Below, piece after piece: positions 1 through 47,349 of a stretch of 64,000 nucleotides of DNA. The position numbers and the translations under genes are program-made. The stretch is from Treponema sp. (lineage in GTDB: Bacteria; Spirochaetota; Spirochaetia; Treponematales; Breznakiellaceae). Position 1 is the first letter of the stretch. Every line of letters begins with the position of its first letter. A model generated the notes under the pieces. That model had not been told where the DNA came from. It saw only the letters and a list, made by a program, of their open reading frames with translations, and made no database searches. The stretch covers positions 905 to 64,904 of the forward strand of contig JAIRWM010000058.1 in assembly GCA_031268975.1 (NCBI GenBank), read 5' to 3'.

Positions 1-61
1 TAACCGCCAGGATCACAAGCGGCAAGAGCAGGATAATCCATCCATGTTTCAGTTTCATCAT
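1..61 (-). CDS. partial CDS (N-terminus only) of a membrane or secreted protein; the gene runs off the left edge
   Basis: On the minus strand, AGGAG (66-70) is followed by ATGATGATG (56-64). The translation MMKLKHGWIILLLPLVILAV... is a hydrophobic signal/TM segment. It is too short to name. Confidence 0.35.
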   Translation of the reverse strand, partial: MMKLKHGWIILLLPLVILAV

Positions 62-143
62 CATTCTCCTTATGGTAAATATCACAAGGTCCCCCTACAG
101 ATAAAACGTGTAGAGGATCCTTTTGTCGTTTCTGATGTCCCGG

Positions 144-1760
144 CTATGCCGGGGTAAAACGCAGTTCCGCCAGAGTGGACGCCTCCAGCCTGGCTCTGCA
201 CTTTTCGGCGGCCGCCGTCATGTTACAGCCGCAGTTTGGTCCGGACAAACAATCACCGGTAGCGGTTTTATGGGTTTTTTCAATAACGCCAAGCATCTGG
301 TGATACGGGATGATGGGGTCTATCCCGGCAATGGCCAGATCCGCATACAGGGGTGCGGTAACTGCCGCCCTGACGGTCCGGGTAATGCAGGGGAATTCCA
401 GCCCTCCGGATATGGGATCGCAGGGTATGCCAATATTGGCCTGGAGCGCCATGGACGCAGCGTTTTCAACCACCCTGCCGTCGCCGCCGCAAAGCCAGGC
501 CGCGGCCCCGGAAGCCATTGCGCAGCAGACGCCGCTTTCCCCAACGCAGCCAACTTCTCCGCTTGCGTTTGTGTGGGTAAACGCCAGCGCGCCCAGACCC
601 GCGGCGACTGCCAGGGACTCGACAAGCCGTTCATGGGAATATCCGTATTGTTCCCGTATCGCGTCCAGGGCCGAAAAAAGATACCCGCCACCGGTACCCA
701 TGGGGCCGGGCACTATCTTTACCCCCGGAATCTTCGCGTTGGTGGAAAGAGCGTGGCGGATGATATGACTTGTCAGACTGTCGCTGATGACGCGGCCTTT
801 TTGCGCATAACGGTCCCAGTATCTGCCGTATATCGGAAGAAGGTCTGTGTCCTTTGCATCTTCGTAGCCTATTTTTTCCAGGGAATGAATTTGATTATCC
901 AAAATGGAAGCAATATGTTCAAAAAAGTCCCATATTTCCCGCTCTGTCCATCCGGAGGAATTTTTTTCGTACGCTATGGCCGCATCGGCAAAGCTGATAC
1001 CCCGTTCATCCGCAGTCTGCCGCCATTCCTCCACTGTTGTAAAAAGCTGCGGCTGCTTATCCCTTCTGGTAACAACGGAGAGAAGGGCAGGCAGACGGTA
1101 CACGCGAAGACCCGGCGCACTGGCGGCAAGCGCGTCCAGCTCATTAAAGGGCATGTTTGAGGAAAACTCAAAACCATAACCGGCCTGCCCCCGGGGAGAA
1201 ACAGAAGACGAAAAACGCACAAAAGAAGAATCCCCGGAGGAAGAAAGTGATGCCGCCAGATTCTCCATATCCCGGAGAGAGAGACGGCCTTCTCTGTCTT
1301 CCAGAAACACCAGGTGGGTATCGGCCCGCCATGACAGCGCTATGCCGTTTATGCCGGAAACCAGGATCATGCCACCCCCGACAGATGAGGCGTTCATGGT
1401 ATACACCGTCCCCGCTGAATCTTCAACAACGATACGCTCTTCCGGGGTGCCGGTGTAATCGAACTCATAGGCTATTCCCTGCTGCCGCGCCAGAGCGTGC
1501 GCGTTAAAAAGCCGTTCATCATCCGGCAAAAAACCCTGAATCCCGCCCAAATATCCCCTATCGGACATAAAATTGACCAAAAACGCCAGGGGATGGGAAT
1601 TCCGATCAAACAGGAAACGTACCTTTTTGACATCGCCCCCGGCCAAAGCCCTGGCGGCGTTTCCAATGCGGGCCGGTCCGGCAAATCCACCTGCTGAACC
1701 GGGCTGCATGACGGGGCCGAAAACATCGTTGAAAAAATCGGGATACAGTGACACCGGCAT
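144..1760 (-). CDS. sdaA: iron-sulfur-dependent L-serine dehydratase-like protein, fused beta+alpha chain
   Basis: 538-aa ORF. The N-terminal FGPVMQPGSAGG resembles the IGPSSSHTVGP start of Fe-S serine dehydratases. The C-terminal half carries GEVGCVGESGVCCAMAS and PCDPISGGLEFPC, which are cluster and active-site motifs of the alpha domain. Confidence 0.75.
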   Translation of the reverse strand: MPVSLYPDFFNDVFGPVMQPGSAGGFAGPARIGNAARALAGGDVKKVRFLFDRNSHPLAFLVNFMSDRGYLGGIQGFLPDDERLFNAHALARQQGIAYEFDYTGTPEERIVVEDSAGTVYTMNASSVGGGMILVSGINGIALSWRADTHLVFLEDREGRLSLRDMENLAASLSSSGDSSFVRFSSSVSPRGQAGYGFEFSSNMPFNELDALAASAPGLRVYRLPALLSVVTRRDKQPQLFTTVEEWRQTADERGISFADAAIAYEKNSSGWTEREIWDFFEHIASILDNQIHSLEKIGYEDAKDTDLLPIYGRYWDRYAQKGRVISDSLTSHIIRHALSTNAKIPGVKIVPGPMGTGGGYLFSALDAIREQYGYSHERLVESLAVAAGLGALAFTHTNASGEVGCVGESGVCCAMASGAAAWLCGGDGRVVENAASMALQANIGIPCDPISGGLEFPCITRTVRAAVTAPLYADLAIAGIDPIIPYHQMLGVIEKTHKTATGDCLSGPNCGCNMTAAAEKCRARLEASTLAELRFTPA

Positions 1761-1777
1761 GACTTCTCCTTTTTCCC

Positions 1778-3148
1778 CTACTGGGTCTGGGTGGTGGACG
1801 CGATATTTCCCCTGCGGAAAATGCCGTCGTAAATATCTTCCATAAGCCGCAGTCCGCCATTGTACCCCGCATAGCTCCGGTTAATGATCACGCTGTTATT
1901 CACGGGGAGGCTTACATGAAGGGACAGGTTGCCGTTTTCCGCGGCAAGCTTGTCCTCCCAGCTGCTTCCCAGAATGATCGCCTTGTTGGAGCTTCCAAGC
2001 TTTTTCCGTATGTCTTTCTGGATAATGCCGCCGTCTGTCAAAAATAAAACCGTCTCGTTAAAATCGGAGGTCATATCGGTAAAAACCTTTTCTATGGCGC
2101 CGTATTTCCGGGGCGGAGGATCGTCGGTAATGTATATTCCTTTGGGGACAAAACCCATTTCATTAACCAAATAGCCGCCGAATCCGGCCGCGTAGGAACT
2201 GTCGGCAATGATGTATAACTCAAAGGGAATGTTGTTCCGGAAGTCCGCGAGAAAATCCGCAAGTGAAACAAAGTACGCGTAAAATCTTTTTTCTTCCTTG
2301 CGTATAACAGTCTCTACCCTGTTCTGATCCAATCCGGCAAAGACGCCTATTTCCCGCAGAACCCGGCTTGTCGCCTCGGCGCCGGAGGGCAGGTAGGGGA
2401 TGTGCAGATAGGGCGTTCCGTATTTGCTTTTCAGCAGTTCCACGGTTTCAACGCCAACCCAGGAAGAAAGCGCCAGATTGAACTGCGCATGGGGAATGGC
2501 CTTCCATTCCTCCACTCCCGCAGATTCGTTTCCAAAGAGGATGTTGACCTCAAGACCGACAGCTTCCAGGAGCCGTTTGATTTCTTCAAGGTCACTCCGC
2601 CAGAACGGATTCTGGCAGGGCACTACGGAAAATACGTTGACCAAGCCCTTTTTGGGACGGGCGTCAATGTCGCCGACAAAGCCTTCGATAATGCCCTTGA
2701 TTACCAGTTCATGGCCCAGATAATTGTTTCCCCTGAACCCGGCGGTTTCCACACCCACAATGGGGCGGCCCTGGAGGGCAAAGGTCGAAGCAACCTGCGC
2801 AACATCATCCCCGACAATTCCTGAGGTACAGCCCGAAAGCACTACAAACAAATCCCCCTTAAGAACCTTAAAAGCGCCCTCAATAAAGCGGGACAGTTTT
2901 TCCTCCCCGCCGAACACCACATCCTGCTCATTTGTGTTCGTGCAGCTTACCGTCCCGCCGCCGCCGTATCCTTCGCCCTGGAACCCCGCCCCGTACGAAG
3001 TAAAGGCAAACGTCTTTCCAACGCAGCCGGGACCGGAATGTACTATGGGCAGCGCTCTGGGAATTGCCAGCACCGTCTGCTGAGCCGCCAGGGCGCAGGA
3101 AAAGCGGGGCTGTTCGATGTATGTGGTCTTGTCCCTGTAGTCGATCAT
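1778..3148 (-). CDS. nitrogenase component-1-type oxidoreductase, beta-like (NifK/NifN-like) subunit
   Basis: The start was moved to the internal ATG at 3148, giving a TAACATG junction with the upstream gene. The sequence reads MIDYRDKTTYIEQPRFSCALAA..HSGPGC..LSGCTSGIVGDD, with Cys at NifK P-cluster-type positions. Overall the family resemblance is to Oxidored_nitro proteins. Confidence 0.8.
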   Translation of the reverse strand: MIDYRDKTTYIEQPRFSCALAAQQTVLAIPRALPIVHSGPGCVGKTFAFTSYGAGFQGEGYGGGGTVSCTNTNEQDVVFGGEEKLSRFIEGAFKVLKGDLFVVLSGCTSGIVGDDVAQVASTFALQGRPIVGVETAGFRGNNYLGHELVIKGIIEGFVGDIDARPKKGLVNVFSVVPCQNPFWRSDLEEIKRLLEAVGLEVNILFGNESAGVEEWKAIPHAQFNLALSSWVGVETVELLKSKYGTPYLHIPYLPSGAEATSRVLREIGVFAGLDQNRVETVIRKEEKRFYAYFVSLADFLADFRNNIPFELYIIADSSYAAGFGGYLVNEMGFVPKGIYITDDPPPRKYGAIEKVFTDMTSDFNETVLFLTDGGIIQKDIRKKLGSSNKAIILGSSWEDKLAAENGNLSLHVSLPVNNSVIINRSYAGYNGGLRLMEDIYDGIFRRGNIASTTQTQ

Positions 3149-3149
3149 G

Positions 3150-4652
3150 TTACAGTTCCCCGTCGTCAGTGTCGGCAGCGCTGTCACCACCGGTGTTTTT
3201 TTCGAAGAAAAACGGATCAGCCTGTTCCAGCCACCAGGTCGTATAGGGGCTTTCACAGTGGCGGGAGATATTCTCAAAAAGTTTTTTGGTCTTGAGTGCG
3301 TCAAGAAGCCGCTTCCCCAGCCGCACCAGGCCATCGTAGCCTGCGCTGATATTCACATCTCCGTCGTTCATTGTGGGGATTCCAAGCTTTGCCCCGGTAA
3401 TTGTCATGTTCATGTGCCGTACAATAAGAATATCCGGCCTGGCATCCTTGAGTAGCTTGAAAACCTGATACGGCTGTTTATTACACACCGAATAATTCCC
3501 TATCTCTCCCTTGGAGGCCACAAGGTTCCCCAGGCTGTCCAGGCTTTCCGTTCCGCCGTCGGTGGTCTGGTCGTGGTGCAGGGTTGTGATTCCCACCAGA
3601 TCAAGCCCCAGATCAAGGAGCATGTTGGCGATGCTGTGCGCATAAGAATCTCCCGCGAAAATATAAATTCGCTTTCCCTTTAATTGTTCCCTGACCTGCG
3701 TCAGCTCTTCATTCACCCGTTCATGTTCAGACTGAATAAGATCTTCAACAATCTCTTCCCGGCCGGTCAGCCGGGCGACTTCCCTGAGCCAGTTGTCGGT
3801 CCACTGCACGCCGAAAGGCGGCGGAGACTTGACTTCGGGAACTCCGTACTCCTGTTCAAGCGCCGCCGCGGGATACATTGCCAGCGTTTCACAGATATGG
3901 GTAGTACAGGCCGCCTCGGAAAGCTTTTCCAGGGTCTCCACATCCGCAAGCGGAACAACATAGTTTGCCCTGAGCCCCAGCTTTCCCAAGAGAGGGCCGA
4001 ATGTATCACTCCCCTCAAAATTGAATACATTGACAAGATCCGGTTGTTTTTTTACGGGAGCTTTCACAATCCGGGTAAGAATGCCGTGAAAGGCGGCGTC
4101 AAAACCCGATGACCATATTCTCGACTTGAACCCTTCGCAAAATACCGGGACAACCGGAATGCCCAATTCTTCCTGGAGTTCGTCGGCAACGCTTTCAATG
4201 TCATCTCCGACTATACCCGCGGCACAGGAAGAAAGCACAAATATCGCTGAAGGATCAAACCGTCGCTTTGCCTCATAAATCGTCGCCCGCAGTTTTTCCA
4301 GCCCGCCGTACACGGTGTCCTTTTCCTGAATATTTGTACTAAGCACGTGTACTTCCTGCGGTGGAAGACCCCTTGCCCTGGCAGATACATCCACGGTTAA
4401 ACTGGCCGCGCCGGCCCCGCTGCTGCATCCGATGGGCGCGTGATCTATTACCGCAGCGCCGCGTATAACATAGGTAAGAGTCTGCCCGCAGCCCTGGGAA
4501 CAGTCGCTGCACTGACCAAAGGAACGCTCTGTCAGAGTCAGCTGACGGTTCCGGGAGCGCTCACAGAGATCCTGACCGGTTCCATGGTAGGAAATAATCG
4601 ATTTAAGCCGCCGTTCCCTCACTTCGACTTCGGATAACTCAAGATTAACCAT
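3150..4652 (-). CDS. nitrogenase component-1-type oxidoreductase, alpha-like (NifD/NifE-like) subunit
   Basis: 500-aa ORF with a GGAGGG RBS. Motifs are CSDCSQGCGQ, HAPIGC, LSSCAAGIVGDDIE and THICETLAMY. These match NifD/NifE cluster-ligand contexts by eye. Confidence 0.8.
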   Translation of the reverse strand: MVNLELSEVEVRERRLKSIISYHGTGQDLCERSRNRQLTLTERSFGQCSDCSQGCGQTLTYVIRGAAVIDHAPIGCSSGAGAASLTVDVSARARGLPPQEVHVLSTNIQEKDTVYGGLEKLRATIYEAKRRFDPSAIFVLSSCAAGIVGDDIESVADELQEELGIPVVPVFCEGFKSRIWSSGFDAAFHGILTRIVKAPVKKQPDLVNVFNFEGSDTFGPLLGKLGLRANYVVPLADVETLEKLSEAACTTHICETLAMYPAAALEQEYGVPEVKSPPPFGVQWTDNWLREVARLTGREEIVEDLIQSEHERVNEELTQVREQLKGKRIYIFAGDSYAHSIANMLLDLGLDLVGITTLHHDQTTDGGTESLDSLGNLVASKGEIGNYSVCNKQPYQVFKLLKDARPDILIVRHMNMTITGAKLGIPTMNDGDVNISAGYDGLVRLGKRLLDALKTKKLFENISRHCESPYTTWWLEQADPFFFEKNTGGDSAADTDDGEL

Positions 4653-4672
4653 TCAATCCCTCCAATTGCCAT

Positions 4673-4740
4673 GGCTGTCCAGGAAGTTGGTGCGCAAACT
4701 TGCGTTTACGACCTCCCGGCCAGCCCTTGCTTTCATTCAA
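4673..4740 (-). promoter_or_regulatory. conserved extended hairpin in the 5' leader of the nitrogenase-like operon (copy 1 of 2)
   Basis: The minus-strand RNA is GCAAGGGCUGGCCGGGAGGUCGUAAACGCAAGUUUGCGCACCAACUUCCUGGACAGCC. It forms three stacked stems with a GCAA loop. A second copy at 30387-30454 is about 86% identical and its changes preserve pairing. Confidence 0.55.
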
Positions 4741-4817
4741 CGAACCGTTTCCGCAAATCATATCCCATCATGTTAAACAAAATCATATAATACATATATA
4801 ATTACTAGGATATATGA

Positions 4818-4846
4818 ACAATATCATAGTGTCAAAAAAGGGTCAA
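4818..4846 (-). promoter_or_regulatory. putative sigma70-type promoter (TTGACC-17-TATTGT) for the nitrogenase-like operon
   Basis: The hexamers were read on the minus strand in the AT-rich divergent region. Several alternative hexamer pairs exist nearby. Confidence 0.3.
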
Positions 4847-4920
4847 TATGATTTTCTCTGATCTTGCAATTATTCCCTATTTTTTATATAAAATTACTAT
4901 GAATTTTAAGGATATCGCGT

Positions 4921-6135
4921 ATGGACGAAAGTAATTTTGAAAAACTCGCCTCAATGGTGAAAGGCTTTACCGGCATCGAAAAAGACCGGGTTTCTCTTGG
5001 TTACCGGCCGGGTACCCAGCTTGTACGGGGATATTCGGGTATTGAAAGGGAAACCGGCGCAATCAGCGCGCCCATATACCTGAGCGTGCCGTATGTACAC
5101 CCTTCCTTTGACGAGTCGACCGGCTTCGGCTATGCCCGCTATGGCACTCCGACCAGGCTGGAACTGGAAAACACCATTGCCATGCTGGAACACGGATTAA
5201 AAGCCTGGGCCTTTTCCAGCGGCATGGCGGCAATTTCGATTCTGCTGAAACTTTTTGTCCCCGGGGATCATATCATTGTCTCCAACGATCTGTACGGAGG
5301 CACATACAGGCTCTTTACGACAATATACGGAAGATACGGCCTTGTTTTTACCTATGCGGATACAAGCAATCTTGAAGATGTCAAAAAGGAACTGCGCCGG
5401 GAAACAAAGGCTGTCTTTATTGAAACCCCTTCAAATCCCATGATGAACGTTACCGACATCAAGGCCGTGGCGGAACTGTGCAAAAACAACAACGCCCTGA
5501 CCATTGTGGACAACACCCTCCTGAGCCCGTATTTTCAGCGGCCCATTGATTTCGGCGCGGATATTGTGATACACAGCGGTACAAAATATCTGGGCGGCCA
5601 TAATGACATTATGTCGGGTTTTATCGTTATCGCCGACAAAACGTTGATTGAACCTTTTTTCACTTTTACCATGTCAGAGGGAGGAGTACTTCCCCCGTTT
5701 GACTGCTGGCTTACGCTGCGAAGCCTCAAGACACTCGGCCTGCGCATGGAAAAGCAGCAGGAAAACGCCCTGGGAATGGTTGACTTTCTCAAGAATCACA
5801 AAAAGGTGGAGAAGGTTTTCTATGTCGGGGACAGGGACCATCCCGGCCTTGAAATTTCCCGGCGGCAGACCAGCGGTTCAGGCGGCATGATTTCCTTTTA
5901 CCTGAAAGACAAAGAAGACGCCCGCGGCATTATCAACAAGCTTAAACTCATTCTTTTTGCGGAAAGCCTTGGCGGGACGGAAACCCTCCTCACTTATCCC
6001 GTCGTCCAGACCCACGGAGCAATCCCGGAGGAACTCCGCAGCATCGTCGGGGTAAACGAAAAACTTCTCCGCATATCTGCCGGTGTGGAGGATCCGGCGG
6101 ATCTGATCGAAGACCTGGATCAGGCTTTTACCTGA
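4921..6135 (+). CDS. Cys/Met-metabolism PLP-dependent enzyme (cystathionine gamma-synthase / beta-lyase / methionine gamma-lyase family)
   Basis: 404 aa. It has the SGTKYLGGHNDIMSG Schiff-base lysine motif and family-typical SNPMMNVTDI and ESLGGTETL segments. The RBS is AAGGA. Confidence 0.85.
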   Translation: MDESNFEKLASMVKGFTGIEKDRVSLGYRPGTQLVRGYSGIERETGAISAPIYLSVPYVHPSFDESTGFGYARYGTPTRLELENTIAMLEHGLKAWAFSSGMAAISILLKLFVPGDHIIVSNDLYGGTYRLFTTIYGRYGLVFTYADTSNLEDVKKELRRETKAVFIETPSNPMMNVTDIKAVAELCKNNNALTIVDNTLLSPYFQRPIDFGADIVIHSGTKYLGGHNDIMSGFIVIADKTLIEPFFTFTMSEGGVLPPFDCWLTLRSLKTLGLRMEKQQENALGMVDFLKNHKKVEKVFYVGDRDHPGLEISRRQTSGSGGMISFYLKDKEDARGIINKLKLILFAESLGGTETLLTYPVVQTHGAIPEELRSIVGVNEKLLRISAGVEDPADLIEDLDQAFT

Positions 6136-7396
6136 TTGCCGCAGCAGCTTCCTTTACCGCGTCGGTTACATAGTTGTAGGTCATAAAAACCCGTATACCC
6201 CGTTCAGCAAGCATCTCCCGTGGCGCTTCACCGATCCTCATGACGATTACCCCGGCACAGTCCCCTATGATTCCCGCAATGCCCCCAAAAAGCGCCTCGT
6301 GATCGCGGCATTCTGCGGGGCCAAAACAATATTGCGGGATATCCCGGCGCTCAAGCAGACTTACCCTGCCATCCTGATACTCGTATATATAGAAGCTGTG
6401 TGCATGCCCAAAGTGTTGATCCACCACATAGCCCCTGTTTGAAGCCACGGCAAACCGGAGCGCCTCCCCCTCCCCCGCGCCCGACGACTCCGCGGCAGAA
6501 CAGCCGGCAGCGGCCACGGAGGCTCTCTCTGAGGGGAAACCTTCGTCCAGGGTACGGGAAATGTCCTGATCCAGAGCGCCGACCGCATCGGCCCGGCACT
6601 GCCGGCAGTGATACATTTGAGGCAGAATCGCTTCGCACTTTCTCCGCGTCGCCATGATTTCCGCATTGCTGATCAGGGGAAGGTGCTCAAGCAGACTCCC
6701 CTTAACCGGAATAAGCTGCATAATATTGGAAAGATCCGCTCCCTTTTCCCGCGCCGCTTCCACAATTTTCGGGATGTGTCTGTCATTCAAACCCATAAGC
6801 ATGACAATGTTGATCTTGATAACCATGCCCAAAGCCTGCGCCCGGTCTATCCCTTCAAGCTGGCGCTCAAGCAGTATCTTCGCTCCCTCAAGACCGGTGT
6901 AGCGCCGTCCCTGAAAATGAACATAACGGTAAATCCGCCTCCCGATAGCCGGGTCCACGGCGTTTAGCGTTACCGTAACATGCGAGACCCCCAGGGCGGC
7001 AAGTTCATCCGCATACAGCGGCAGCAGCAGCCCGTTGGTGGAAATACAAAACGTCGCATCCGGTTCAGAGTCCCGAATCAGGGAAATGGTACCCCTGACC
7101 GCCGCAAAATTCGCCAAAGCGTCGCCCGGCCCGGCAATCCCTACTACATCGGGCTTTCCAATCCGTTCTTTTACCAAAAGATACCGGGCAAGAGCTTCTT
7201 CGGGACTGAGAATAGCCGTACTTACGCCGGGACGGCTTTCATTGGGACAGTCAAATTTGCGGACACAATAGTTGCACTGAATATTACAGCCCGGCGCCAC
7301 CGGAAGATGAATTCGGGTAAGTTTTCCTCCGCAGCCGGAAAAACAGGGGTGACGAATTGATTTAAGCAGGTTGACAGCCTTGACAGTATCCGGCAT
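6128..7396 (-). CDS. nifB: NifB-type radical SAM cofactor maturase with a C-terminal NifX/NafY-like domain
   Basis: It carries a CNIQCNYC (CX3CX2C) motif and GIAGPGDAL. The C-terminal ~100 aa (FAVASNRGYVVDQHFGHA...) looks like the dinitrogenase-cofactor-binding domain. The RBS is AGGAG. Its 3' end overlaps the convergent PLP gene by 8 bp. Confidence 0.85.
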   Translation of the reverse strand: MPDTVKAVNLLKSIRHPCFSGCGGKLTRIHLPVAPGCNIQCNYCVRKFDCPNESRPGVSTAILSPEEALARYLLVKERIGKPDVVGIAGPGDALANFAAVRGTISLIRDSEPDATFCISTNGLLLPLYADELAALGVSHVTVTLNAVDPAIGRRIYRYVHFQGRRYTGLEGAKILLERQLEGIDRAQALGMVIKINIVMLMGLNDRHIPKIVEAAREKGADLSNIMQLIPVKGSLLEHLPLISNAEIMATRRKCEAILPQMYHCRQCRADAVGALDQDISRTLDEGFPSERASVAAAGCSAAESSGAGEGEALRFAVASNRGYVVDQHFGHAHSFYIYEYQDGRVSLLERRDIPQYCFGPAECRDHEALFGGIAGIIGDCAGVIVMRIGEAPREMLAERGIRVFMTYNYVTDAVKEAAAAIR

Positions 7397-7422
7397 TATA
7401 ATACTCCTATAAATTGATAGGA

Positions 7423-7451
7423 ATACTATGTTTTAATCAAGATTTTGTCAA
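7423..7451 (-). promoter_or_regulatory. sigma70-type promoter TTGACA-17-TAGTAT upstream of nifB
   Basis: Canonical hexamers with 17-nt spacing lie about 25 nt upstream of the nifB RBS. Confidence 0.5.
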
Positions 7452-7458
7452 CACCACA

Positions 7459-7566
7459 CGTTGCATTGTCCATGAGGTTCGGTCTGTAGGGAAATTATGT
7501 AACTGTGGAGGTTTGTTACCATGCTGTCTAAATATAACATTTTTGAACCGCCCCGAGGGGTGGGGT
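7459..7566 (+). repeat. 108-nt dispersed element, copy A (inverted partner at 35668-35774)
   Basis: Hand alignment shows about 90% identity to the reverse complement of 35668-35774. It ends in the GC hairpin CCGCCCCGAGGGGYGG. It contains GGAGG followed by an ATG that opens a 48-aa ORF (7521-7667). Confidence 0.7.
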
Positions 7567-7746
7567 GGAGTGAGATGGAAGCGATTGTCGTTTCCGAATG
7601 GAACGGGAAAAGCCGTTTACAGAAACAGCCGGATAACGGACAAACCGGTCGCCGGGGGGAATATTAAGCTTCTTGCGGAATATCGCGTCCGCGAAAACGA
7701 ATTGACCTTTTGCGAATAACAGGAATACTGTTCAAGAGAGGCTCTT

Positions 7747-8229
7747 ATGACAGGAAAGACCATTCAGGAAATGATCCGCTTTTTTGGCGGGGACAAAAAG
7801 CGCATTGCGCACGCACTTAAAGTGTATGCCTGTGCCGGGACCATAGCGGAACTGGAAAACTGCACTGCCGAAGTAAAAAAGACGGTGATCCTCGCGGCCA
7901 TACTCCATGATGTCGGGATAAAAGTCGCCGAAGAAAAATATGGCTCGTGTACCATGCCGCAGCAAGAGGAAGAAGGGCCGCCGGTTGCGCGGGAAATTTT
8001 ACTCCGCCTTGGTAATGATCCGGCGTTGACAGATCGCGTCTGTTTTCTCATTGCCCATCATCACCATCCCGGCGCCGCCGAAGATCAGGATTTTCGGATA
8101 CTTCTGGAAGCGGATTTCATAGTTAACTTTGAGGAAGAAAACCTCCCCCTGTGTTTTCTGGAACAAACCGCGAAGGAACATTTTAGAACACAGAGCGGCC
8201 TGTCACTGTTACGCGCCATTTTTTTGTGA
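7747..8229 (+). CDS. HD-domain phosphohydrolase
   Basis: 160 aa with ILHDVGI and HHHHPG metal-binding motifs. Confidence 0.8.
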   Translation: MTGKTIQEMIRFFGGDKKRIAHALKVYACAGTIAELENCTAEVKKTVILAAILHDVGIKVAEEKYGSCTMPQQEEEGPPVAREILLRLGNDPALTDRVCFLIAHHHHPGAAEDQDFRILLEADFIVNFEEENLPLCFLEQTAKEHFRTQSGLSLLRAIFL

Positions 8230-8330
8230 ACCACTCGAAAAACACGAACAAATCCGATAGGAAGTCCAACGTACCGGTTCGTGCCGCCCGTGAGGCCGGT
8301 GGTTATATCATTAACGGTTTGTTTCCGCCG

Positions 8331-8375
8331 GAAAAAAACAAAAGCCGCCGGGCCGCGTGAGCGGTCGGGCGGCTT
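8331..8375 (-). terminator. Rho-independent terminator of groEL
   Basis: On the minus strand the stem AAGCCGCC..GGCGGCTT is followed by TTTGTTTTTTT, about 30 nt after the groEL stop. Confidence 0.7.
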
Positions 8376-8405
8376 GCCGTATTTACGGAGCTCCATGCGG
8401 ACTTT

Positions 8406-10133
<1,728 letters not shown>

Positions 10134-10152
10134 TTACCGGGTGATCGTCTAA

Positions 10153-10182
10153 ATAATACCAAAATTGCGCCAGAAAAGTCAA
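10153..10182 (-). promoter_or_regulatory. sigma70-type promoter TTGACT-18-TATTAT upstream of groEL
   Basis: The hexamers were read on the minus strand about 100 nt upstream of the groEL ATG. Confidence 0.5.
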
Positions 10183-10248
10183 TGCGCCTTGTTGTATTCT
10201 CACAGGTTTCCGCTTAAAGTAAGGGTTTCCGGAGGAGTTTAGGAGAAA

Positions 10249-11940
10249 ATGAAACAGCGGTATGTAATTGGTCTTGATTTTGGAACGAAGTCGGGCCGGG
10301 CCCTTCTGGTAGACGCCAAGACCGGCGAAACCGCCGCGCAGTCGGTGAAGGATTATGCACATGGGGTTATGGACCGGTTTTTGCCCGACGGAAAAACTGC
10401 GCTGGGCGCCGGCTGGGCGCTTCAGCATCCGAAAGACTACCTTGATACGCTGGAATATACCGTCCGTGAGGCGGTTTCCCTGGCCGGCATACCCGCCGGG
10501 GACATAATCGGTCTTTCCATAGACTTTACCGCGTGTACGATCCTTCCCATAGACGCGGCCCGAAGGCCGCTTTGTTTTCTCGAAAAATACAAAAACAGGC
10601 CCCACGCCTACGTCAAATTGTGGAAACATCACGCCGCGCTGCCGCAAACCAGCCGAATCAACGAAGTGTTGGCAGAAGAGGGCCTTATCGATCTTCCCCT
10701 GTACGGGGGAAAAGTGTCTTCGGAACTGTTTTTACCCAAAGTGATGCAAATCCTGGAAGAGGATCCGGAGATTTACCACTCGGCGGACGCCGTTCTTGAG
10801 GCTGCCGACTGGCTTACGCTTCTTCTTACCGGGGAAAACCGGCGTTCTTTCAGCATGGCTTCCTACAAGGCGATGTGGGACGGAGAGAAATACCCCTCCG
10901 CCCGGCTGCTTCGGGCATTTAATCCCGGTCTGGAGCATGTTGTGGAAGAAAAAATGGCCGCCGAAATAGTTCCCCTCGGCTCGAAAATCGGGGAATTAAA
11001 CGAAGAATGGGCCGGACGGCTGGGACTTCTTCCCGGAACGGCTGTGGGCGCCAGTATTATCGACGCCCACGCCGGACTTCCCGGCTGCGGCATCACAAAA
11101 CCGGGACAGATGATGCTTATCATCGGAACTTCCAGCGTACAGGCGGTGTTGAGCGAAAAGCCCTATTCCGGGAAAGGCGTTATGGGGGGAGTCAATGGGG
11201 GGATTATAGACGGATATTACGCCCTGGAATCCGGACTCGCCGGGGTAGGGGATATTTTTGAGTGGTTTGTCAGCAACGCCGTGCCGGAGCGGTATGGGGC
11301 GATGGCAAAAGCCGAAGGGAAAAGCCTGTTCCGTTTCCTGGGCGAAGCGGCCGCGAAAGGCAGACCGGGAAAAAGCGGACTTTTGGCCCTGGACTGGTGG
11401 AACGGCAATAAAACGCCGTTTGTGGACGCCGGCCTCTCCGGGGTTCTTGTGGGTTGCACCATGGCGACCCGGCCCGAAGACATATACCGGGCTCTTGTGG
11501 AAGCGACCGGCTTTGGGACCAGAATGATAATGGACACATTTGCGGAAGCGGGAGTGGAAATAGACGAAATTCGCGCCTGCGGCGGAATAGCGGAAAAAGA
11601 TCCGGCGCTGATGCAGATTTACGCGGACATTACCAACCGGGAAATAAAAGTCTCCGCCTCCGGCCAAACCGCCGCCCTGGGCGCCGCGATGTACGCGGCG
11701 ACAGCCGCCGGGGCGGAACGGGGCGGATACAGCCGGATCGCCGGCGCGGCGGCGGCCATGAGCCGCACCCGGGATCGGGCCTTTACGCCGAATCCGGACA
11801 ATGTGGCGCCATATTCGGCGCTGTACAGCCACTACCGGGAACTTTCCGCTTATTTCGGCGCAAACGGGATAATGAAAGAGCTAAAAGCCCTGAGCGGCGG
11901 CCAGGGAAGCGCTGACTTACTCACATCGAGAATAAATTAG
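10249..11940 (+). CDS. araB: FGGY-family sugar kinase, ribulokinase-like
   Basis: 563 aa. The N-terminus YVIGLDFGTKSGRALLVD..TGE parallels the AraB N-terminus along the full length. The RBS is GGAGAA. Confidence 0.85.
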   Translation: MKQRYVIGLDFGTKSGRALLVDAKTGETAAQSVKDYAHGVMDRFLPDGKTALGAGWALQHPKDYLDTLEYTVREAVSLAGIPAGDIIGLSIDFTACTILPIDAARRPLCFLEKYKNRPHAYVKLWKHHAALPQTSRINEVLAEEGLIDLPLYGGKVSSELFLPKVMQILEEDPEIYHSADAVLEAADWLTLLLTGENRRSFSMASYKAMWDGEKYPSARLLRAFNPGLEHVVEEKMAAEIVPLGSKIGELNEEWAGRLGLLPGTAVGASIIDAHAGLPGCGITKPGQMMLIIGTSSVQAVLSEKPYSGKGVMGGVNGGIIDGYYALESGLAGVGDIFEWFVSNAVPERYGAMAKAEGKSLFRFLGEAAAKGRPGKSGLLALDWWNGNKTPFVDAGLSGVLVGCTMATRPEDIYRALVEATGFGTRMIMDTFAEAGVEIDEIRACGGIAEKDPALMQIYADITNREIKVSASGQTAALGAAMYAATAAGAERGGYSRIAGAAAAMSRTRDRAFTPNPDNVAPYSALYSHYRELSAYFGANGIMKELKALSGGQGSADLLTSRIN

Positions 11941-12426
11941 TGCTTCTTTAATGTGGATTTTTCGCCGCTTTGAAAAAGCGCGGGGCTGTAAAGGAAGTAG
12001 AAAAAACAGTCGGTTTGGGGTGTCGGCATGACGATTTCTTGTCCTTGCAGACTGAGGCGCGGGGAATCCCGGTTTTGATCAAAAACCAACGAGCTCCCGC
12101 ATGTGTTGTCCCGCCTTCCCCGCAGCGGGGACAAAGCTATCCCCTCAATGAAAGCGGAGGGTATGTGCCGGGCGGTTCCGTTGGAATTCCGTCCGGCTCT
12201 TTTTTTCTCCGGTTCACGGCACATCCGGTTCTTTACGGGCTTTCCCGTGTCCGCCCGCCTTTACCGCTCCTTTGACCTGGTTATTTCTTTTACAGCCCCG
12301 GTATGGACCCCGCTTGCGAATAAATCAGCGTTTCTTAGCGCCCGTGGGAAAATGCCTGGCGTAAAAAGCCGGGGAAGCCGCACCGGAATCTTGCGGTCCC
12401 GCCGCGTTTTGTAGTACATTTACAAC

Positions 12427-26365: not shown

Positions 26366-28078
26366 TTAGAGAATCTGTTCGTCCACGGGTCTGCCGCCGG
26401 GAACCATGGGGAGCACCATTTCGTTCCTGTCGATAACGGCTTCTACAAGCACAGCGCGGCTTTCCGCCAGATGAACCATGGCCTTGTCCAGCGCGGCGGT
26501 AAATTCGCCCGGCGTCTTTGCCCGAAACCCGCTGACTCCGTAAGCGTTTGCGAGGATTGGGAAATCCGGCGTTTCTCCAAGATCGGTTTCACAAAAGTTT
26601 CCGCCGCAGAACAATTTTTGCCATTGGCGGACCATGCCCAGGCCGCTGTTGTTTAAGAGCACAATCAGCAGGGGAATTTTGCGGGCGCTTACCGTTCCCA
26701 GTTCCGGGCTGTTCATCCGGAACGATCCGTCGCCGGTAAACAGAACTACCGGCCGCTCCGGGTTGGCGAGCTTTGCCCCAATGGCGGCGCCAAGGCCAAA
26801 GCCCATGGCGCCAAGGCCCCCCGGCGTAATAAACGACCTCGGCCCGAAAGCCGGATAATACCGGGCAGCCCACATTTGGTGCTGGCCCACATCTGTAACC
26901 GCGATCGCGCCGGGGCCGAGTTTTCCGGCGGTCTGTTTCACAATAAATTCGGGATGAAGAACCTGTCCTGTTTGTTTTTGCCGGGCGGGGATACCGGCTT
27001 TAAGCTTTTCAATTTCACCGTTCCACGCGGTCTTGACGGACGCGGGGAGCTTTTTTATAAGCGCGGCCAGGGTTTTTTTCAGATCTCCTATAATCCAAAA
27101 ATCCGATTGAATGTTTTTGTTGACTTCGGCGGGATCAATGTCCATGTGCAGAATTTTCGCGTTTCTGGCAAACCTGTCGGCACGGCTTGTAACCCTGTCG
27201 GAAAAACGCGAGCCGGCGGCGATAAGCAGGTCTGCCTTTTGCACGGCTTTGTTCGAGGCCGCCGTACCGTGCATGCCGATAAGCCCCGTACAAAGCCGGT
27301 AATCGCCGGGAACGGCCCCGATTCCCATTAAGCTCGTCGCCACCGGGGCGTTAAGCCGTTCCGCGAGTTCGGCCAGTTCTTTTGACGCCCCGGATATAAT
27401 GGCCCCGCCTCCCGCATAGATCATCGGGCGGGAAGATTCCAGAATCAGCTTTGCCGCTTTTTCAATGTCGCCGGAGTCAAAGGTTACCCTTTCGCCCCGT
27501 TCGGCAAGCCGCCTGGCCCGCTCTCCCTGTACGCCGCCCCGGCTCGAATCGGCGACACTTAGATACTCCGTTTCGGCGGCGCATATATCGGAGGGTATGT
27601 CGATAAGCACCGGGCCCGGTCTGCCGCTTTCCGCGACGATAAAAGCTTCGCGGATTACTTCCGCGAGTTCCTTGACATTTTTGACAATCCAGTTATGTTT
27701 GACAACGGGCATGGTTATACCGGCAATGTCCACTTCCTGAAAACTGTCTTTTCCCAAAAGATGAAGGGGCACGTTTCCGGTAATCGCTACCACCGGAGAA
27801 GAATCCATATAAGCGGCGGCGATGCCGGTAACAAGGTTTGTCGCTCCCGGCCCGGACGTGGCAATACACACGCCGGTTCTGCCGGAAGATCTGGCATAGC
27901 CGTCCGCGGCATGCACGGCGTGTTGTTCATGGCTTACAAGGATATGCCGTATCCTGTCCCGGTGTCTGTAAAGTTCATCATAAATTTTAAGCACAGATCC
28001 GCCGGGGATGCCGAAAACCGTATCAACGCCTTCTTCGACAAGGGCCTCAACCAGAATCCTCGCGCCTGAATACTTCAT
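26366..28078 (-). CDS. ilvB: acetolactate synthase large subunit (ThDP enzyme, biosynthetic type)
   Basis: 570 aa, with GARILVEALVEEGVDTVFGIPGG and the ThDP motif GDGSFRMN..NN. Confidence 0.9.
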   Translation of the reverse strand: MKYSGARILVEALVEEGVDTVFGIPGGSVLKIYDELYRHRDRIRHILVSHEQHAVHAADGYARSSGRTGVCIATSGPGATNLVTGIAAAYMDSSPVVAITGNVPLHLLGKDSFQEVDIAGITMPVVKHNWIVKNVKELAEVIREAFIVAESGRPGPVLIDIPSDICAAETEYLSVADSSRGGVQGERARRLAERGERVTFDSGDIEKAAKLILESSRPMIYAGGGAIISGASKELAELAERLNAPVATSLMGIGAVPGDYRLCTGLIGMHGTAASNKAVQKADLLIAAGSRFSDRVTSRADRFARNAKILHMDIDPAEVNKNIQSDFWIIGDLKKTLAALIKKLPASVKTAWNGEIEKLKAGIPARQKQTGQVLHPEFIVKQTAGKLGPGAIAVTDVGQHQMWAARYYPAFGPRSFITPGGLGAMGFGLGAAIGAKLANPERPVVLFTGDGSFRMNSPELGTVSARKIPLLIVLLNNSGLGMVRQWQKLFCGGNFCETDLGETPDFPILANAYGVSGFRAKTPGEFTAALDKAMVHLAESRAVLVEAVIDRNEMVLPMVPGGRPVDEQIL

Positions 28079-29742
28079 GGTCTGGACGCCTCCGGGCGGC
28101 GTCCGTTTTTCGGGCCGCTGTTCCGTTCAATGTCGCCAATCAGCTTACATTCAATGGAGTCCACCAGGGCGGAACGGCTCGCGTCAATAATGTCTTCGGA
28201 AACTCCGACCGTTGTCCACACTCTGGGGCCGTCTGTGGATTCAATAAGCACACGGACCTTGGCGGCGGTAGCCGCGCCGCCGTCTATAACCCGGACTTTG
28301 TAGTCTGTCAGGCGGACATGCTCCAGTTCCGGGTAAAAGCGGACAAGGGCCCTGCGGAGCGCACCGTCCAGGGCGTGTACCGGGCCGTTTCCCTCCGCGG
28401 CGGCAATCTCGTCCTGTCCGTCCACCCATACCTTTACCCATGCGTGGGAACAGGCGATGGATTCGCCGGTAGGATGTTCGCTCATCACCCTGTAGGCAAG
28501 TATCCTGAAAAGGCTCTTGTACCGGCCAAGCTCACGGCGGACAAGCAGATCAAAGCTGGCGACGGCCCCCTCGAAAGCCCAGCCGGCGGCTTCCAGCGAT
28601 TTCAGCTTTTCGGCCAGAATGTTTACCGCCGGATGTTCCCTGGTGATCGAAGGATCAATGCTCCTCATCCGATCCGCTATCGCGGAACGCCCCCCGACTT
28701 CGCTCATTAAAAGGCGGCGGTCGTTTCCCACAGAAACAGGATTAACGTGCTCAAAAGATTTTGGGGTTTTGAGCACTCCGTCACTGTGCATTCCCCCTTT
28801 GTGGGAAAACGCCGATGATCCTACATACGGCATTGTCGCCGGGATCGGCACATTCGCCGTTTCGGCGATACGTCTGGTTATTTCCGAAATACGCCTGAGC
28901 TTTCCTTCCGGCAGACATGTATACCCAAGCTTCAGTTCCAGACTGGGAATAAGGGAAGCCAGGCTCGTGTTGCCGCATCGTTCCCCAAAACCAACAACGG
29001 TTCCCTGCACATGCAGACAGCCGGACTGGACGGCGGCAAGGGTGTTGGCTATGGCAAGCCCAGCGTCGTTATGGGCGTGAATCCCCAGGCGGACATTCCA
29101 CGGCGCGGCGAGGGCGGCGGCCACGGCGGCACTGATGTCGCCGGGAAAAGAACCGCCGTTTGTGTCGCAAAGGACGATGCGGTCCGCCCCCGCCTGTGAA
29201 GCAGCGTTTACCGCGGCAATGGCATAGTCAGGACTTTCCTTCCAGCCGTCAAAAAAATGTTCCGCGTCAAAAAAAACGCTTTTCCCGCGGGATTTGAAAT
29301 ACGCGACGGTCTCAAAAATCATCGCAAGATTTTCTTCGGGACTTACCCGCAGAACCTCGCGTACATGAAAATTCCAGCTTTTGCCGAAAATCGTTACCGC
29401 CTCTGTTCCCGCCTCAAGCAGGCTGCGGATTTGGGGATCTTTTTCGGGGGAGCTGTCCGGTTTGCGGGTGGGCCCAAACGCGCAGAGCTTTGAGTTTTCC
29501 AGAGAAAGCCCTTTGGCGGCAAGGAAAAAATCGGCGTCTTTGGGATTACTGCCGGGGCTTCCCGCTTCGATCCACGCGACTCCCAGTTCGTCCAGTGCGT
29601 ACACAACGGCGATCTTGTCATGCGGGGAAAAATTTATCCCTTCGCCCTGTGCTCCGTCCCGCAGGGTTGTATCGAGAATTTCTATCCGCTTCGGGCCGCC
29701 GGTTTCCCCGCCGTCCGGATACAGGTTTATCATGGCGCTCAC
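28075..29742 (-). CDS. cimA: (R)-citramalate synthase / 2-isopropylmalate synthase family
   Basis: It has ILDTTLRDGAQGEG, HAHNDAGLAIANTLAAV and a C-terminal LeuA-type regulatory domain. It overlaps ilvB by 4 nt. Confidence 0.85.
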   Translation of the reverse strand: MSAMINLYPDGGETGGPKRIEILDTTLRDGAQGEGINFSPHDKIAVVYALDELGVAWIEAGSPGSNPKDADFFLAAKGLSLENSKLCAFGPTRKPDSSPEKDPQIRSLLEAGTEAVTIFGKSWNFHVREVLRVSPEENLAMIFETVAYFKSRGKSVFFDAEHFFDGWKESPDYAIAAVNAASQAGADRIVLCDTNGGSFPGDISAAVAAALAAPWNVRLGIHAHNDAGLAIANTLAAVQSGCLHVQGTVVGFGERCGNTSLASLIPSLELKLGYTCLPEGKLRRISEITRRIAETANVPIPATMPYVGSSAFSHKGGMHSDGVLKTPKSFEHVNPVSVGNDRRLLMSEVGGRSAIADRMRSIDPSITREHPAVNILAEKLKSLEAAGWAFEGAVASFDLLVRRELGRYKSLFRILAYRVMSEHPTGESIACSHAWVKVWVDGQDEIAAAEGNGPVHALDGALRRALVRFYPELEHVRLTDYKVRVIDGGAATAAKVRVLIESTDGPRVWTTVGVSEDIIDASRSALVDSIECKLIGDIERNSGPKNGRRPEASRP

Positions 29743-44026: not shown

Positions 44027-44103
44027 GCCATAAGTACAACAATATGCCCCTGTGACCTTCCTTATAGCCGGGATTTTTGATACTATTCCTGCAGGGAAAC
44101 ACC

Positions 44104-44832
44104 ATGATGGAAATTCGGGAAACAATACAGCCTCTTGAACGTGTCAATATGCCCCAGCGGGTCAGCGAGCTGATCCGTGATTATATCAGTAAAAACAAGC
44201 TCAAGGCAGGTGACAAGTTGCCGGCCGAAAAAGCGCTTGCTGAGATGTTTAATATTGGGAGCAGATCCGTCAGGGAAGGTCTTAAACTGCTGCAGGCCCG
44301 CGGGTTTCTCGAGATTCAACAGGGAAAAGGGATTTTTGTCGCGGCGCGATGGCTTCATGTTTACATACAAACCTTGACGAATTCTCTGGACATGGACAAC
44401 AACAACGTTAATTTGCTGGTACAGCTTATGGATGTACGCAAACTGCTTGAAACGGCGATTGTCAAGCAGTTTGCGATGTGTCCGCTTGCGGAAAAGCTTG
44501 ATGCAATTTCCGGGAATCTTCAAAAGCAAAAAGAAGCCTGCGTACAAAAAAACGTAAAACTTTTTAACTCGCTGGACGTAGAATTTCACCGTCTTATTGT
44601 CGACAGTGTCAACAATACCATCCTTTCAAGCCTGTACCGGGGACTCATGGATCTGCTGTTTGTATCGTTCCAGAAAACGCTGAACACCCCGGAATTTCTT
44701 AACGAATCATACGGTCTCCATTTGAAAATCTTTAACGCAATTAAAGAAAAAAAGCCGGATCGTGCGTTCGAGCTCATGTCAAAACAAATAGACATTTCCA
44801 AAAAGAAGCTGCAAAAGCTCATCTCCGTCTGA
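44104..44832 (+). CDS. GntR/FadR-family transcriptional regulator
   Basis: It has a winged HTH (PAEKALAEMFNIGSRSVREGLKLLQARG) and an FCD-type C-terminal domain. Confidence 0.85.
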   Translation: MMEIRETIQPLERVNMPQRVSELIRDYISKNKLKAGDKLPAEKALAEMFNIGSRSVREGLKLLQARGFLEIQQGKGIFVAARWLHVYIQTLTNSLDMDNNNVNLLVQLMDVRKLLETAIVKQFAMCPLAEKLDAISGNLQKQKEACVQKNVKLFNSLDVEFHRLIVDSVNNTILSSLYRGLMDLLFVSFQKTLNTPEFLNESYGLHLKIFNAIKEKKPDRAFELMSKQIDISKKKLQKLISV

Positions 44833-44945
44833 CAGGTCTCCCTGAAATGATTTCGCGGGCTTCTTTTGCCCCGCCGTTGTTTGTTCCAACATTCAGCCAT
44901 CAGGAAATTTAGCCTTTTTCAGGGAAAGAAAAATTAAAAATAAGT

Positions 44946-44975
44946 CTTGACATATGTCATAAGATGGGATTATCA
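44946..44975 (+). promoter_or_regulatory. sigma70 promoter TTGACA-18-TATCAT, with the TGACATATGTCA operator (site 3, 44947-44958) over the -35
   Basis: The hexamers and palindrome were read directly, about 40 nt upstream of the SBP ATG. Confidence 0.55.
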
Positions 44976-45012
44976 TACATCTAATTTCACATACCCAAAG
45001 GAGAAGAAAAGA

Positions 45013-45834: not shown

Positions 45835-45920
45835 TTCTCCGTAACGTGGTAAAAAACTGCCCTGTGGGTTTTTAAAATTCGCCGGGCAGTTTCGCTGATA
45901 AATGTGTAAGGCAGGCTGGA

Positions 45921-46667: not shown

Positions 46668-46698
46668 GGGGTCTGTAAAGGTTTTTTGGGGGGTAATC

Positions 46699-47349
46699 GT
46701 GCAGCTGTATATTATACTAAAATTCATGCCTGATTTTCTGAAGGCGACTGTTGAAACACTCAAAATCGCGATACTAAGCGGTTTTTTTGCCCTCATTCTC
46801 GGAATACTTCTGGCCTCGGTCTATCAGCTTAAAACAAAGCCTTTAAATTTTTTGATAAACCTTTACACGAGCATTGTACGGGGAACGCCCCTTTTGGTAC
46901 AGCTTTACTTTGTTTACTACGGACTTTCCAACATCGGCATTATGGTTGATTCGTATACGGGCGCCATTGCGGCGTTTACTTTTAATACCGGCGCCTATAT
47001 GGCGGAAATTTTCCGCGGCGGCCTTGAAGGCATTGACAAGGGACAGTTTAATGCGGCGTATTCTCTGGGAATGTCCTGGACTGCCTGTTTACGTAACATT
47101 ATTTTTCCGCAGGTGCTTCAGCGGATTATTTCGCCGCTTCTCACCCAGCTTGCGTACCTTATCAAAGACACCAGCCTTGCGGCTGTTTTGGTTATTCGGG
47201 AGCTGACATACACATATCGTCATTTGGCATCGAACACATACCGGTCATTTGAGGCGCTCGTTCCGCCAATGATTATCTATTTTGGCCTGTATGTGATCTT
47301 TCGTCTGGCGAGCATTTGCTTCGCGGCGAAGAAGGGAGGAAAAGCGTAG
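46699..47349 (+). CDS. amino-acid ABC transporter permease (HisM/GlnP-like)
   Basis: It has the EAA-like loop (AYSLGMSW...IIFPQ) and 5 TM segments. The start codon is GTG. Confidence 0.85.
   Translation: MQLYIILKFMPDFLKATVETLKIAILSGFFALILGILLASVYQLKTKPLNFLINLYTSIVRGTPLLVQLYFVYYGLSNIGIMVDSYTGAIAAFTFNTGAYMAEIFRGGLEGIDKGQFNAAYSLGMSWTACLRNIIFPQVLQRIISPLLTQLAYLIKDTSLAAVLVIRELTYTYRHLASNTYRSFEALVPPMIIYFGLYVIFRLASICFAAKKGGKA

Follow-up and report, generated by a model that had tools for sequence, protein, structure and literature searches.

A Mar-type nitrogenase-like locus of Treponema sp., probably serving sulfur acquisition and cut short at the edge of the analysed window

Introduction

At the left end of a 64,000-nucleotide stretch of contig JAIRWM010000058.1 of Treponema sp. 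(the whole stretch is hereafter called the window), genes of two nitrogenase-like component-1 chains, D (alpha) and K (beta), were found close to a gene of the cofactor maturase NifB. As the original prediction for this DNA had stated, no NifH-like open reading frame (ORF) is present in the 64 kb: the best tblastn match of A. vinelandii NifH had an E-value of 0.32, and no GKGGIGKS motif was detected. The question raised by this locus is which reaction such a D/K pair serves and which reductase supplies it with electrons.

The same prediction had described the locus as a non-N2-fixing, cofactor-bearing reductase tied to organosulfur or amino-acid metabolism. This description was supported by the Mar-type affiliation of the pair, by its cluster ligands and by the sulfur-gene neighbours of its relatives. 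Most likely, the locus represents a nitrogenase-like reductase system for sulfur acquisition of the methylthio-alkane reductase (Mar) type, which is seen incomplete at the window end. Mar performs ATP-driven reductive C–S cleavage for sulfur acquisition (PMC13474568). Already described are the Mar family and its structure, as well as paralogues in which the specificity is altered (PMC12552129; PMC13474568; preprint 10.64898/2026.08.20.746119).

Assignment and phylogeny of the D and K chains

All ORFs and motifs quoted in the prediction were recovered at the same positions in the ORF list and its translations, and the coupling of the two genes was confirmed, the stop codon of D and the start codon of K reading TAA-C-ATG. 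Both chains match PF00148 (E 5e-74 for D and 2e-56 for K). In phmmer searches against PDB, the best match of D was MarD (9FMG_A and 9D9U_A, 464.6 bits), with 127.8 bits for the best NifD, and the best match of K was MarK (9D9U_C), the next family reaching 78 bits. Structure 9FMG is the MarDK2H2 complex of methylthio-alkane reductase from Rhodospirillum rubrum (PMC12552129). The MarBHDK system of this bacterium (Group IV-C; 9FMG, 9D9U) is the best match of both chains in sequence and in fold. Foldseek of the predicted D structure gave 9FMG_A at the top (E 9.6e-40, TM 0.72/0.76) together with 9D9U, and NifD later in the list (E 2.6e-22); the AlphaFold model is mediocre (pLDDT 68, 13-sequence alignment) and serves for this ranking of folds only, not for the placement of residues.

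The cut-offs of the NCBIfam equivalogs are all far out of reach: for D, the best model was nifE with 168 bits against a cut-off of 505, and nifD gave 133 bits against 654, while K scored 42 bits with nifK against 427. Chain D is 46% identical to MarD of R. rubrum, 23% to NifD and 22% to NifE. The pair is assigned on this basis to the Mar-type nitrogenase-like proteins, and is neither NifDK nor NifEN; both identities were rejected on scores, sequence identity and the tree. The homology of the pair with Mar had been missed in the prediction, where MarBHDK was cited as background only.

A neighbour-joining (NJ) tree was built from known references, representatives of the 50%-identity clusters obtained in an exhaustive search, and NifD, NifE, NifK and NifN of a Sinorhizobium plasmid as outgroups. 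Bootstrap support was calculated from 200 replicates of NJ with Kimura distances, NJ being the only tree method applied. The D chain of the window groups with those of Clostridia and Treponema from gut, rumen and termites. The clade containing it was supported at 94%, the canonical Mar clade at 100%, and the node joining both at 90%. True Mar orthologues found with R. rubrum MarD as the query, including those of Heliobacteria, Pelosinus, Clostridium and Thermoanaerobacterium, are 73–90% identical to it; for orthologues from Firmicutes the range is 73–81%, against 46% for D of the window. Accordingly placed, the D/K pair appears not to be a canonical Mar orthologue but a member of a well-supported sister clade. 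Functional Mar has been predicted in Clostridia, Fibrobacter and Negativicutes (PMC13474568); this prediction fits the 73–81%-identical orthologues and not the clade of the window.

Relatives of D gave 597 matches at E <= 1e-10 among the scored candidates, the best 120 of which are all at least 54% identical. The closest originate from metagenome-assembled genomes (MAGs) of termite-gut Spirochaetaceae, the nearest being 88% identical among the best 80 loci. Cultured members of the clade are Caproiciproducens, Kineothrix, Butyrivibrio, Treponema saccharophilum and T. bryantii. Within the papers covered, the literature search yielded nothing specific on the gut clade, on the link with a dehydratase-like gene, on the cystine-type importer, on Groups IV-D and IV-E or on a nitrogenase-like enzyme acting on S-amino acids.

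Metal-cluster ligands and residues of the substrate pocket

Conservation of residues in D was judged from a 13-member family alignment. All six P-cluster cysteines are present in the pair, three in D and three in K: C51, C76 and C143 of D align with C66, C91 and C158 of MarD, and C18, C42 and C107 of K align with the P-cluster cysteines of MarK and NifK. Cys270 and His429 are the ligands of the [Fe8S9C] cluster of MarD; the pair Arg428-His429 is located on the Mar-specific Loop I and was proposed as a hallmark of Mar, and His429 had been overlooked as a ligand in earlier sequence analysis, since it is not at the position of NifD His442 (PMC12552129). Residues C254 and R412-H413 (LIVRHMN) of D occupy the positions of Cys270 and Arg428-His429. 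In the alignment, NifD and NifE have no such Arg-His loop. The predicted lack of a cofactor His is correct only for the position of NifD His442, where D reads IPTMNDGD, but not for the chain, as H413 aligns with MarD His429; the reading of D as NifE-like and without a cofactor His fails with the presence of the Mar-specific pair.

Residues W180, F184 and H359 of D, corresponding to W195, F199 and H375 of MarD, are also kept. C51, C76, C143, C254, R412, H413, W180, F184 and H359 are invariant in the 13 family members. Because the ligands are invariant across the clade, an interpretation of the genes as decayed paralogues was rejected.

The motif CSDCSQGC had been taken for an extra cysteine cluster. 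Of its cysteines (QC48SDC51SQGC55), C48 and C55 are extra, the former being invariant and the latter nearly invariant in the clade, but C51 is the first P-cluster ligand, equivalent to MarD Cys66. C48 corresponds to Gly in canonical MarD, and C55 is at the channel position of MarD Met70. The five tabulated canonical Mar sequences all share M70, C73, Q74, Y98, I101, H194 and F374, and all seven of these pocket and channel residues are replaced in D, by C55, T58, L59, A83, T86, I179 and L358, respectively. M70, C73, Y98 and I101 were proposed to set the substrate choice of Mar1 and Mar2 of Rhodopseudomonas palustris (preprint 10.64898/2026.08.20.746119).

Operon structure and the Fe protein

The start codon of the dehydratase-like gene lies 17 nt past the stop codon of K, with AGGAG between them. 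The predicted continuation of the operon into this gene was supported; the membrane protein said to come next was not, as the 143 bases that remain past the dehydratase-like gene hold only a ribosome-binding site (RBS) and the start of an ORF with a signal peptide. The translation of this ORF at the left edge, MMMKLKHGWIILLLPLVILAV, corresponds to the N-terminal end, MKLKHWKFALLL, of the SBP_bac_3 protein encoded first at a related locus, L006; the L006 gene at 5334–6197 matches PF00497.

In total, 80 loci of relatives were fetched, and the window proteins and a NifH were mapped onto them. Among the relatives with downstream sequence, L006 is the closest (D chain 86% identical), and its genes form one tightly packed operon in the order D, K, dehydratase-like gene, three genes of SBP_bac_3, two permease genes, the gene of the ATPase of an ATP-binding cassette (ABC) transporter, and NifH. 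The NifH of L006 (10470–11327, 285 aa) scores 415 bits with Fer4_NifH and 450 bits with TIGR01287, the cut-off of which is 394. The same order with NifH last was found in L087, with a dehydratase-like protein 80% identical to that of the window, and Caproiciproducens sp. NJN-50 has the same order of D, K, dehydratase-like gene, transporter and NifH as L006. The locus L007 (86% identical) repeats the upstream part, with NifB and the divergent gene of a pyridoxal-phosphate (PLP) enzyme.

The claim of an absent or replaced reductase was not supported, as orthologous operons end in NifH about 5 kb past the dehydratase-like gene, beyond the window edge. Judged from these operons, the lack of NifH is most likely an artefact of the window edge, at which the operon runs off position 1. 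Since the orthologous operons end in NifH, the Fe-protein gene is expected, by analogy, about 5 kb beyond window position 1. The source contig exceeds the window by no more than 2 kb, and this gene is therefore probably part of a different contig of the MAG.

The Fe protein of the L006 operon scores 449.5 bits with the bona fide NifH of C. pasteurianum and 282.7 bits with MarH of R. rubrum. As it is much nearer to NifH than to MarH, the clade differs from canonical Mar in its reductase lineage, too, which is of the NifH type. NifH-type Fe proteins end Mar-like operons also at L087 7662–8519 and L001 18306–19154. Separation of the DK genes from H is common in the clade generally: among the 32 loci flanked by 9 kb or more on each side, NifH was found within 10 kb in 18 and not in 14. 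Plasmid pTS2 of T. saccharophilum carries one set of radical-SAM (rSAM), NifX and nifH genes 5–12 kb from two DK pairs, and the shared H/B genes of R. palustris are likewise distant from the DK pairs.

Cofactor maturase and dehydratase-like protein

The predicted full-length NifB, encoded 1.5 kb upstream of D, was confirmed by a TIGR01290 score of 398.5 bits (cut-off 343.65), by the motif CNIQCNYC and by the NifX-like tail (PF04055, PF02579); it scores 257.6 bits with the NifB structure 6Y1X. The promoter-like site claimed for this gene was found at 7451–7423 (TTGACA-17-TAGTAT), and NifB is probably monocistronic. Promoter-like sites occur here at only about twice the expectation from shuffled sequence (12 found, 6.0 +/- 2.7 expected). 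A NifB homologue was found near D/K in 40 of 83 neighbourhoods including the window and, by tblastn, in 40 of the 82 loci of relatives.

The two neighbours named in the prediction were identified by Pfam as a protein of the SDH_alpha family and a Cys_Met_Meta_PP enzyme, as claimed. The PLP enzyme reaches no NCBIfam equivalog cut-off; in orthologues L005 and L007, a gene of this family precedes D in divergent orientation. The dehydratase-like protein is also under the cut-offs, with 104 bits against 243 for TIGR00718 (sda_alpha) and 77 bits against 345 for sda_mono, and the three cluster cysteines of Legionella SdaA (4RQO) are aligned and kept in it. We infer a divergent paralogue, possibly a lyase acting on a Ser/Cys-type amino acid by beta-elimination; serine as its substrate is doubtful, because the family occurs in sulfur-gene contexts.

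The dehydratase-like family of about 535 aa is also present at loci without nitrogenase-like genes, namely L085 10001–11611 (Sporolactobacillus terrae) and L086 10001–11620, where the gene adjoins those of two PLP-type enzymes, one of the Cys/Met and one of the PALP family, of an M20 peptidase and of an ABC transporter with SBP_bac_3. The family seems to be a sulfur-amino-acid module or enzyme in its own right and not a serine dehydratase.

Sulfur metabolism genes at related loci

Neighbourhood clustering included 82 related loci and the window, 83 neighbourhoods in total. Genes of NifX-like proteins were found in 58 of them, NifH in 43, NifB and SBP_bac_3 in 40 each, CysK-like PALP in 35, substrate-binding proteins (SBP) of the NMT1 type in 29, Cys/Met PLP enzymes in 26, proteins with the class I/II aminotransferase fold in 18, dehydratase-like proteins in 15, Rrf2 regulators in 9 and LysR regulators in 8. 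The neighbours of D/K in relatives include genes of cystine- or sulfonate-type ABC transporters. The cluster of Caproiciproducens is flanked by genes of MetE, methylenetetrahydrofolate reductase (MTHFR), two more Cys/Met PLP enzymes and an Rrf2 regulator. For the transporter of the orthologous operons, the best models are those of a cystine ABC system (TcyN with 314 bits, permease and SBP), all under the equivalog cut-offs. The richness of these neighbourhoods in Cys/Met genes supports the sulfur-assimilation reading.

The pTS2 locus (L088, record 328485–347481) belongs to a 382-kb plasmid with genes of O-acetylhomoserine (OAH) sulfhydrylase, cysK, rSAM-NifX-nifH and a LysR regulator. One of its two D/K pairs is 50% identical to D of the window; in the other, which is more distant (34%), K precedes D. 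Between the pairs lie a GNAT gene and an ABC transporter, and a type I-C CRISPR-Cas locus adjoins. At many loci of rumen Treponema and Negativicutes (L003 1–36, L062, L070, L071, L072, L059 and L064), the Mar-like pair is accompanied within 10 kb by another component-1 pair of a more distant type; it seems common for these anaerobes to have several nitrogenase-like paralogues in one genome.

Proposed function and alternative explanations

In the proposed mechanism, the Fe protein would hydrolyse ATP and supply electrons, by way of the P-cluster, to the L-type cluster, at which the C–S bond of an imported organosulfur compound would be cleaved reductively. The freed thiol or sulfide would enter the synthesis of methionine or cysteine via the adjoining Cys/Met PLP enzyme. 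More speculatively, the dehydratase-like [4Fe-4S] enzyme would then handle the amino-acid moiety by beta-elimination. Because of the cystine-type importer and the replaced pocket and channel residues (Tyr98->Ala, Ile101->Thr), we infer that the substrate may be an S-substituted amino acid sooner than dimethyl sulfide (DMS) or methylthioethanol. Extended to the gut, rumen and termite clade as a whole, the proposal would be that of a reductase for a new substrate class, S-substituted amino acids, working with a NifH-type Fe protein, which we regard as a tentative suggestion that may well prove wrong. Such substrates, for example S-methylcysteine, methionine or thioethers of the lanthionine/cystathionine type, would be taken up by the cystine-type ABC importer, and the [4Fe-4S] dehydratase-like lyase would join in part of the clade.

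A number of points weigh against a Mar-type system for sulfur acquisition at this locus. The window stops at the critical point, and the Fe-protein gene was seen in the loci of relatives, not in the genome itself; moreover, an Fe protein of the NifH type could also serve a true nitrogenase. The substrate is assigned from the transporter family and the pocket residues only, and the activity of clade members is a prediction from sequence. Only 14 of the 82 related loci contain the dehydratase-like gene, which also occurs without Mar-like genes, so that its tie to the reductase chemistry is loose. NflDK3 of R. palustris, which is 52–56% identical to MarDK1, was inactive on the volatile sulfur compounds tested (preprint 10.64898/2026.08.20.746119); D of the window is 46% identical to R. 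rubrum MarD.

The pair could instead be a canonical Mar orthologue, converting DMS, ethyl methyl sulfide and 2-methylthioethanol to methanethiol and methane, ethane or ethylene. This is rather improbable, even though Mar is the nearest characterised enzyme for both chains, the metal-cluster ligands as well as W195, F199 and H375 are all kept, a PLP enzyme of the sulfhydrylase type adjoins as in Mar pathways, and functional Mar is expected among Clostridia and Negativicutes according to a review (PMC13474568). At 46% identity, D belongs to a separate bootstrapped clade, whereas the Mar orthologues of Firmicutes reach 73–81%, and M70, C73, Q74, Y98, I101, H194 and F374 have changed to C, T, L, A, T, I and L, four of these positions (M70, C73, Y98 and I101) being the ones proposed for the choice of substrate by Mar1 and Mar2. 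By our own reasoning, volatile sulfides, which diffuse, would also need no importer of the amino-acid type.

The two remaining alternatives concern the reductase and the product of the pair. That D and K function without a NifH partner, the reductase having been lost or replaced, as was first suggested, is very unlikely: NifH is indeed missing from the 64 kb and from the 10-kb surroundings of 14 of the 32 well-flanked related loci, but the window ends 143 bases past the dehydratase-like gene, NifH is the last gene of the operon in the two closest loci with downstream sequence, complete records (pTS2, R. palustris) have one B/H pair 5–12 kb from the DK pairs, and Mar activity requires MarH (PMC13474568). 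Hardly credible is a NifEN-like scaffold or maturase, or a part of a true N2-fixation system encoded elsewhere in the genome. Although nifE is the best NCBIfam model for the alpha chain with 168 bits, NifB passes its equivalog cut-off and the Fe protein of the orthologues is of the NifH type, the nifE score compares with a cut-off of 505 and the identity of 22–23% to NifE and NifD with 46% to MarD; NifD and NifE are without the Arg-His loop, and the genes stand in a sulfur amino-acid context, with no nifENVX or regulator found.

Relation to described reductases and transporters

With Mar of R. rubrum, the locus shares the six P-cluster cysteines, Cys270, Arg428-His429 of Loop I, W195, F199 and H375, a NifB-type maturase in the locus and, by analogy, a presumable route from sulfur acquisition to methionine synthesis via a PLP enzyme. 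It differs in its position in a sister clade at 46% identity, in the seven replaced pocket and channel residues and in the extra cysteines C48 and C55. NifB of the window carries a NifX domain, which is absent from R. rubrum MarB, the genes are arranged as B ... D-K-lyase-ABC-H (window and orthologues) and not as BHDK, and the Fe protein of the orthologues is of the NifH type and not of the MarH type.

Mar2 (marKD2 / marHB2) and NflDK3 of R. palustris resemble the pair of the window as Mar paralogues whose channel residues are altered and whose substrates differ or are unknown, and in the location of DK pairs kilobases away from shared H/B genes, among genes of sulfur metabolism and transport. 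They are proteobacterial and adjoin methionine or sulfonate transporters, not a cystine-type ABC system with a dehydratase-like lyase. Isethionate reductase IsrBHDK (Group IV-F) is likewise a nitrogenase-like system of B, H, D and K with co-expressed ABC importers, and it cleaves a C–S bond for sulfur assimilation, as is proposed for the window. IsrDK has four of the six P-cluster cysteines and no equivalents of Cys270 and His429 (PMC13474568), unlike the chains of the window, which keep all six cysteines and both equivalents.

NifDK and NifEN have in common with the pair the fold, the positions of the P-cluster ligands and of the cofactor Cys, and a NifB-derived cluster, but identity is 22–23%, His442 is absent, the Arg-His loop replaces the conserved Gly424 region, and no nifENV genes are present. 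TcyJKLMN of B. subtilis is an ABC importer of cystine and S-methylcysteine. The orthologous operons resemble it in having several SBP_bac_3 genes, two permeases and one ATPase, with scores below the equivalog cut-offs.

Significance of the clade

To our knowledge, Mar enzymes are the only non-nitrogenase proteins with a NifB-made [Fe8S9C] cluster, and only the proteobacterial ones have been studied. The clade described here is large, uncharacterised and distributed in gut, rumen and termite anaerobes; it differs in the substrate pocket, in the importer of the amino-acid type and in the NifH-type Fe protein, and its substrate is directly testable in cultured members. As the Fe-protein genes of these sulfur operons pass the TIGR01287 equivalog model, surveys that use nifH as a marker in gut, rumen and termite communities would record them as genes of diazotrophs. 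If the new substrate class is real, sulfur scavenging and not N2 fixation would be the role of many "nifH" genes in gut Clostridia and Treponema, and such bacteria would be a possible non-archaeal source of small hydrocarbons in guts. The locus also demonstrates that false findings of a missing partner can arise from the edges of windows or contigs.

Other features of the window

The features of the left end are listed in Table 1.

Table 1. Genes and putative control sites at the left end of the window
Feature	Position	Strand	Basis
5' end of the next operon gene, signal peptide of SBP family 3 (cystine-type)	1–64	-	AAGGAG RBS before it
Serine-dehydratase-like gene, 538 aa, fused beta+alpha [4Fe-4S]	144–1760	-	PF03313, E 5e-31
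MarK-like beta chain, 456 aa	1778–3148	-	410.8 bits to R. rubrum MarK 9D9U_C
MarD-like alpha chain, 500 aa	3150–4652	-	464.6 bits to MarD 9FMG_A
AT-rich region between the divergent D and PLP genes, promoter-like sites for the D-K operon and for the PLP gene	4653–4920		Consensus matches
Cys/Met-metabolism PLP enzyme, 404 aa, cystathionine gamma-synthase / sulfhydrylase / lyase family	4921–6135	+	PF01053, E 2e-133
NifB/MarB-type radical-SAM cofactor maturase with fused NifX-like domain, 422 aa	6128–7396	-	TIGR01290, PF04055, PF02579
Sigma-70-like promoter match upstream of NifB	7423–7451	-	TTGACA-17-TAGTAT, 10/12 matches, consensus only

The intergenic region between D and the PLP gene contains two consensus matches, a putative promoter of the D-K operon on the minus strand (4835–4807, TTGACA-17-TATCCT) and a putative promoter of the PLP gene on the plus strand (4774–4802, TAAACA-17-TATAAT). 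An Rfam scan of positions 1–12000 at E <= 1 revealed no riboswitch or T-box, and control by such elements was rejected on this ground. The genes of the PLP enzyme (plus strand, end at 6135) and NifB (minus strand, end at 6128) converge with an overlap of 8 bases at 6128–6135, which leaves no space for a terminator between them.

The remaining genes of the window are housekeeping genes, including those of GroEL, a sugar kinase, transporters, LeuA/IlvB-type proteins, HtpG and RadA. At 26366–29742 on the minus strand, an HMGL-like/LeuA_dimer protein with a D2 domain of the homocitrate-synthase type is encoded beside a thiamine-pyrophosphate (TPP) enzyme of the acetolactate-synthase type. Its gene (28075–29742) was considered as a candidate nifV and rejected on account of the LeuA_dimer domain and the adjoining TPP enzyme; it is of the LeuA/CimA type and does not count as evidence for homocitrate, and the region looks like a branched-chain amino-acid operon.

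A second ABC system of the polar-amino-acid type, represented by an ATPase and two permeases, is encoded at 44077–49216 and is followed by a class I/II aminotransferase. The latter (48023–49216) was rejected as a member of the PatB-like family found near the Mar-like genes of relatives, the identity being 20%. A gene of a GntR/FCD regulator is located just upstream of this transporter, with a pair of ORFs without a Pfam match between them.

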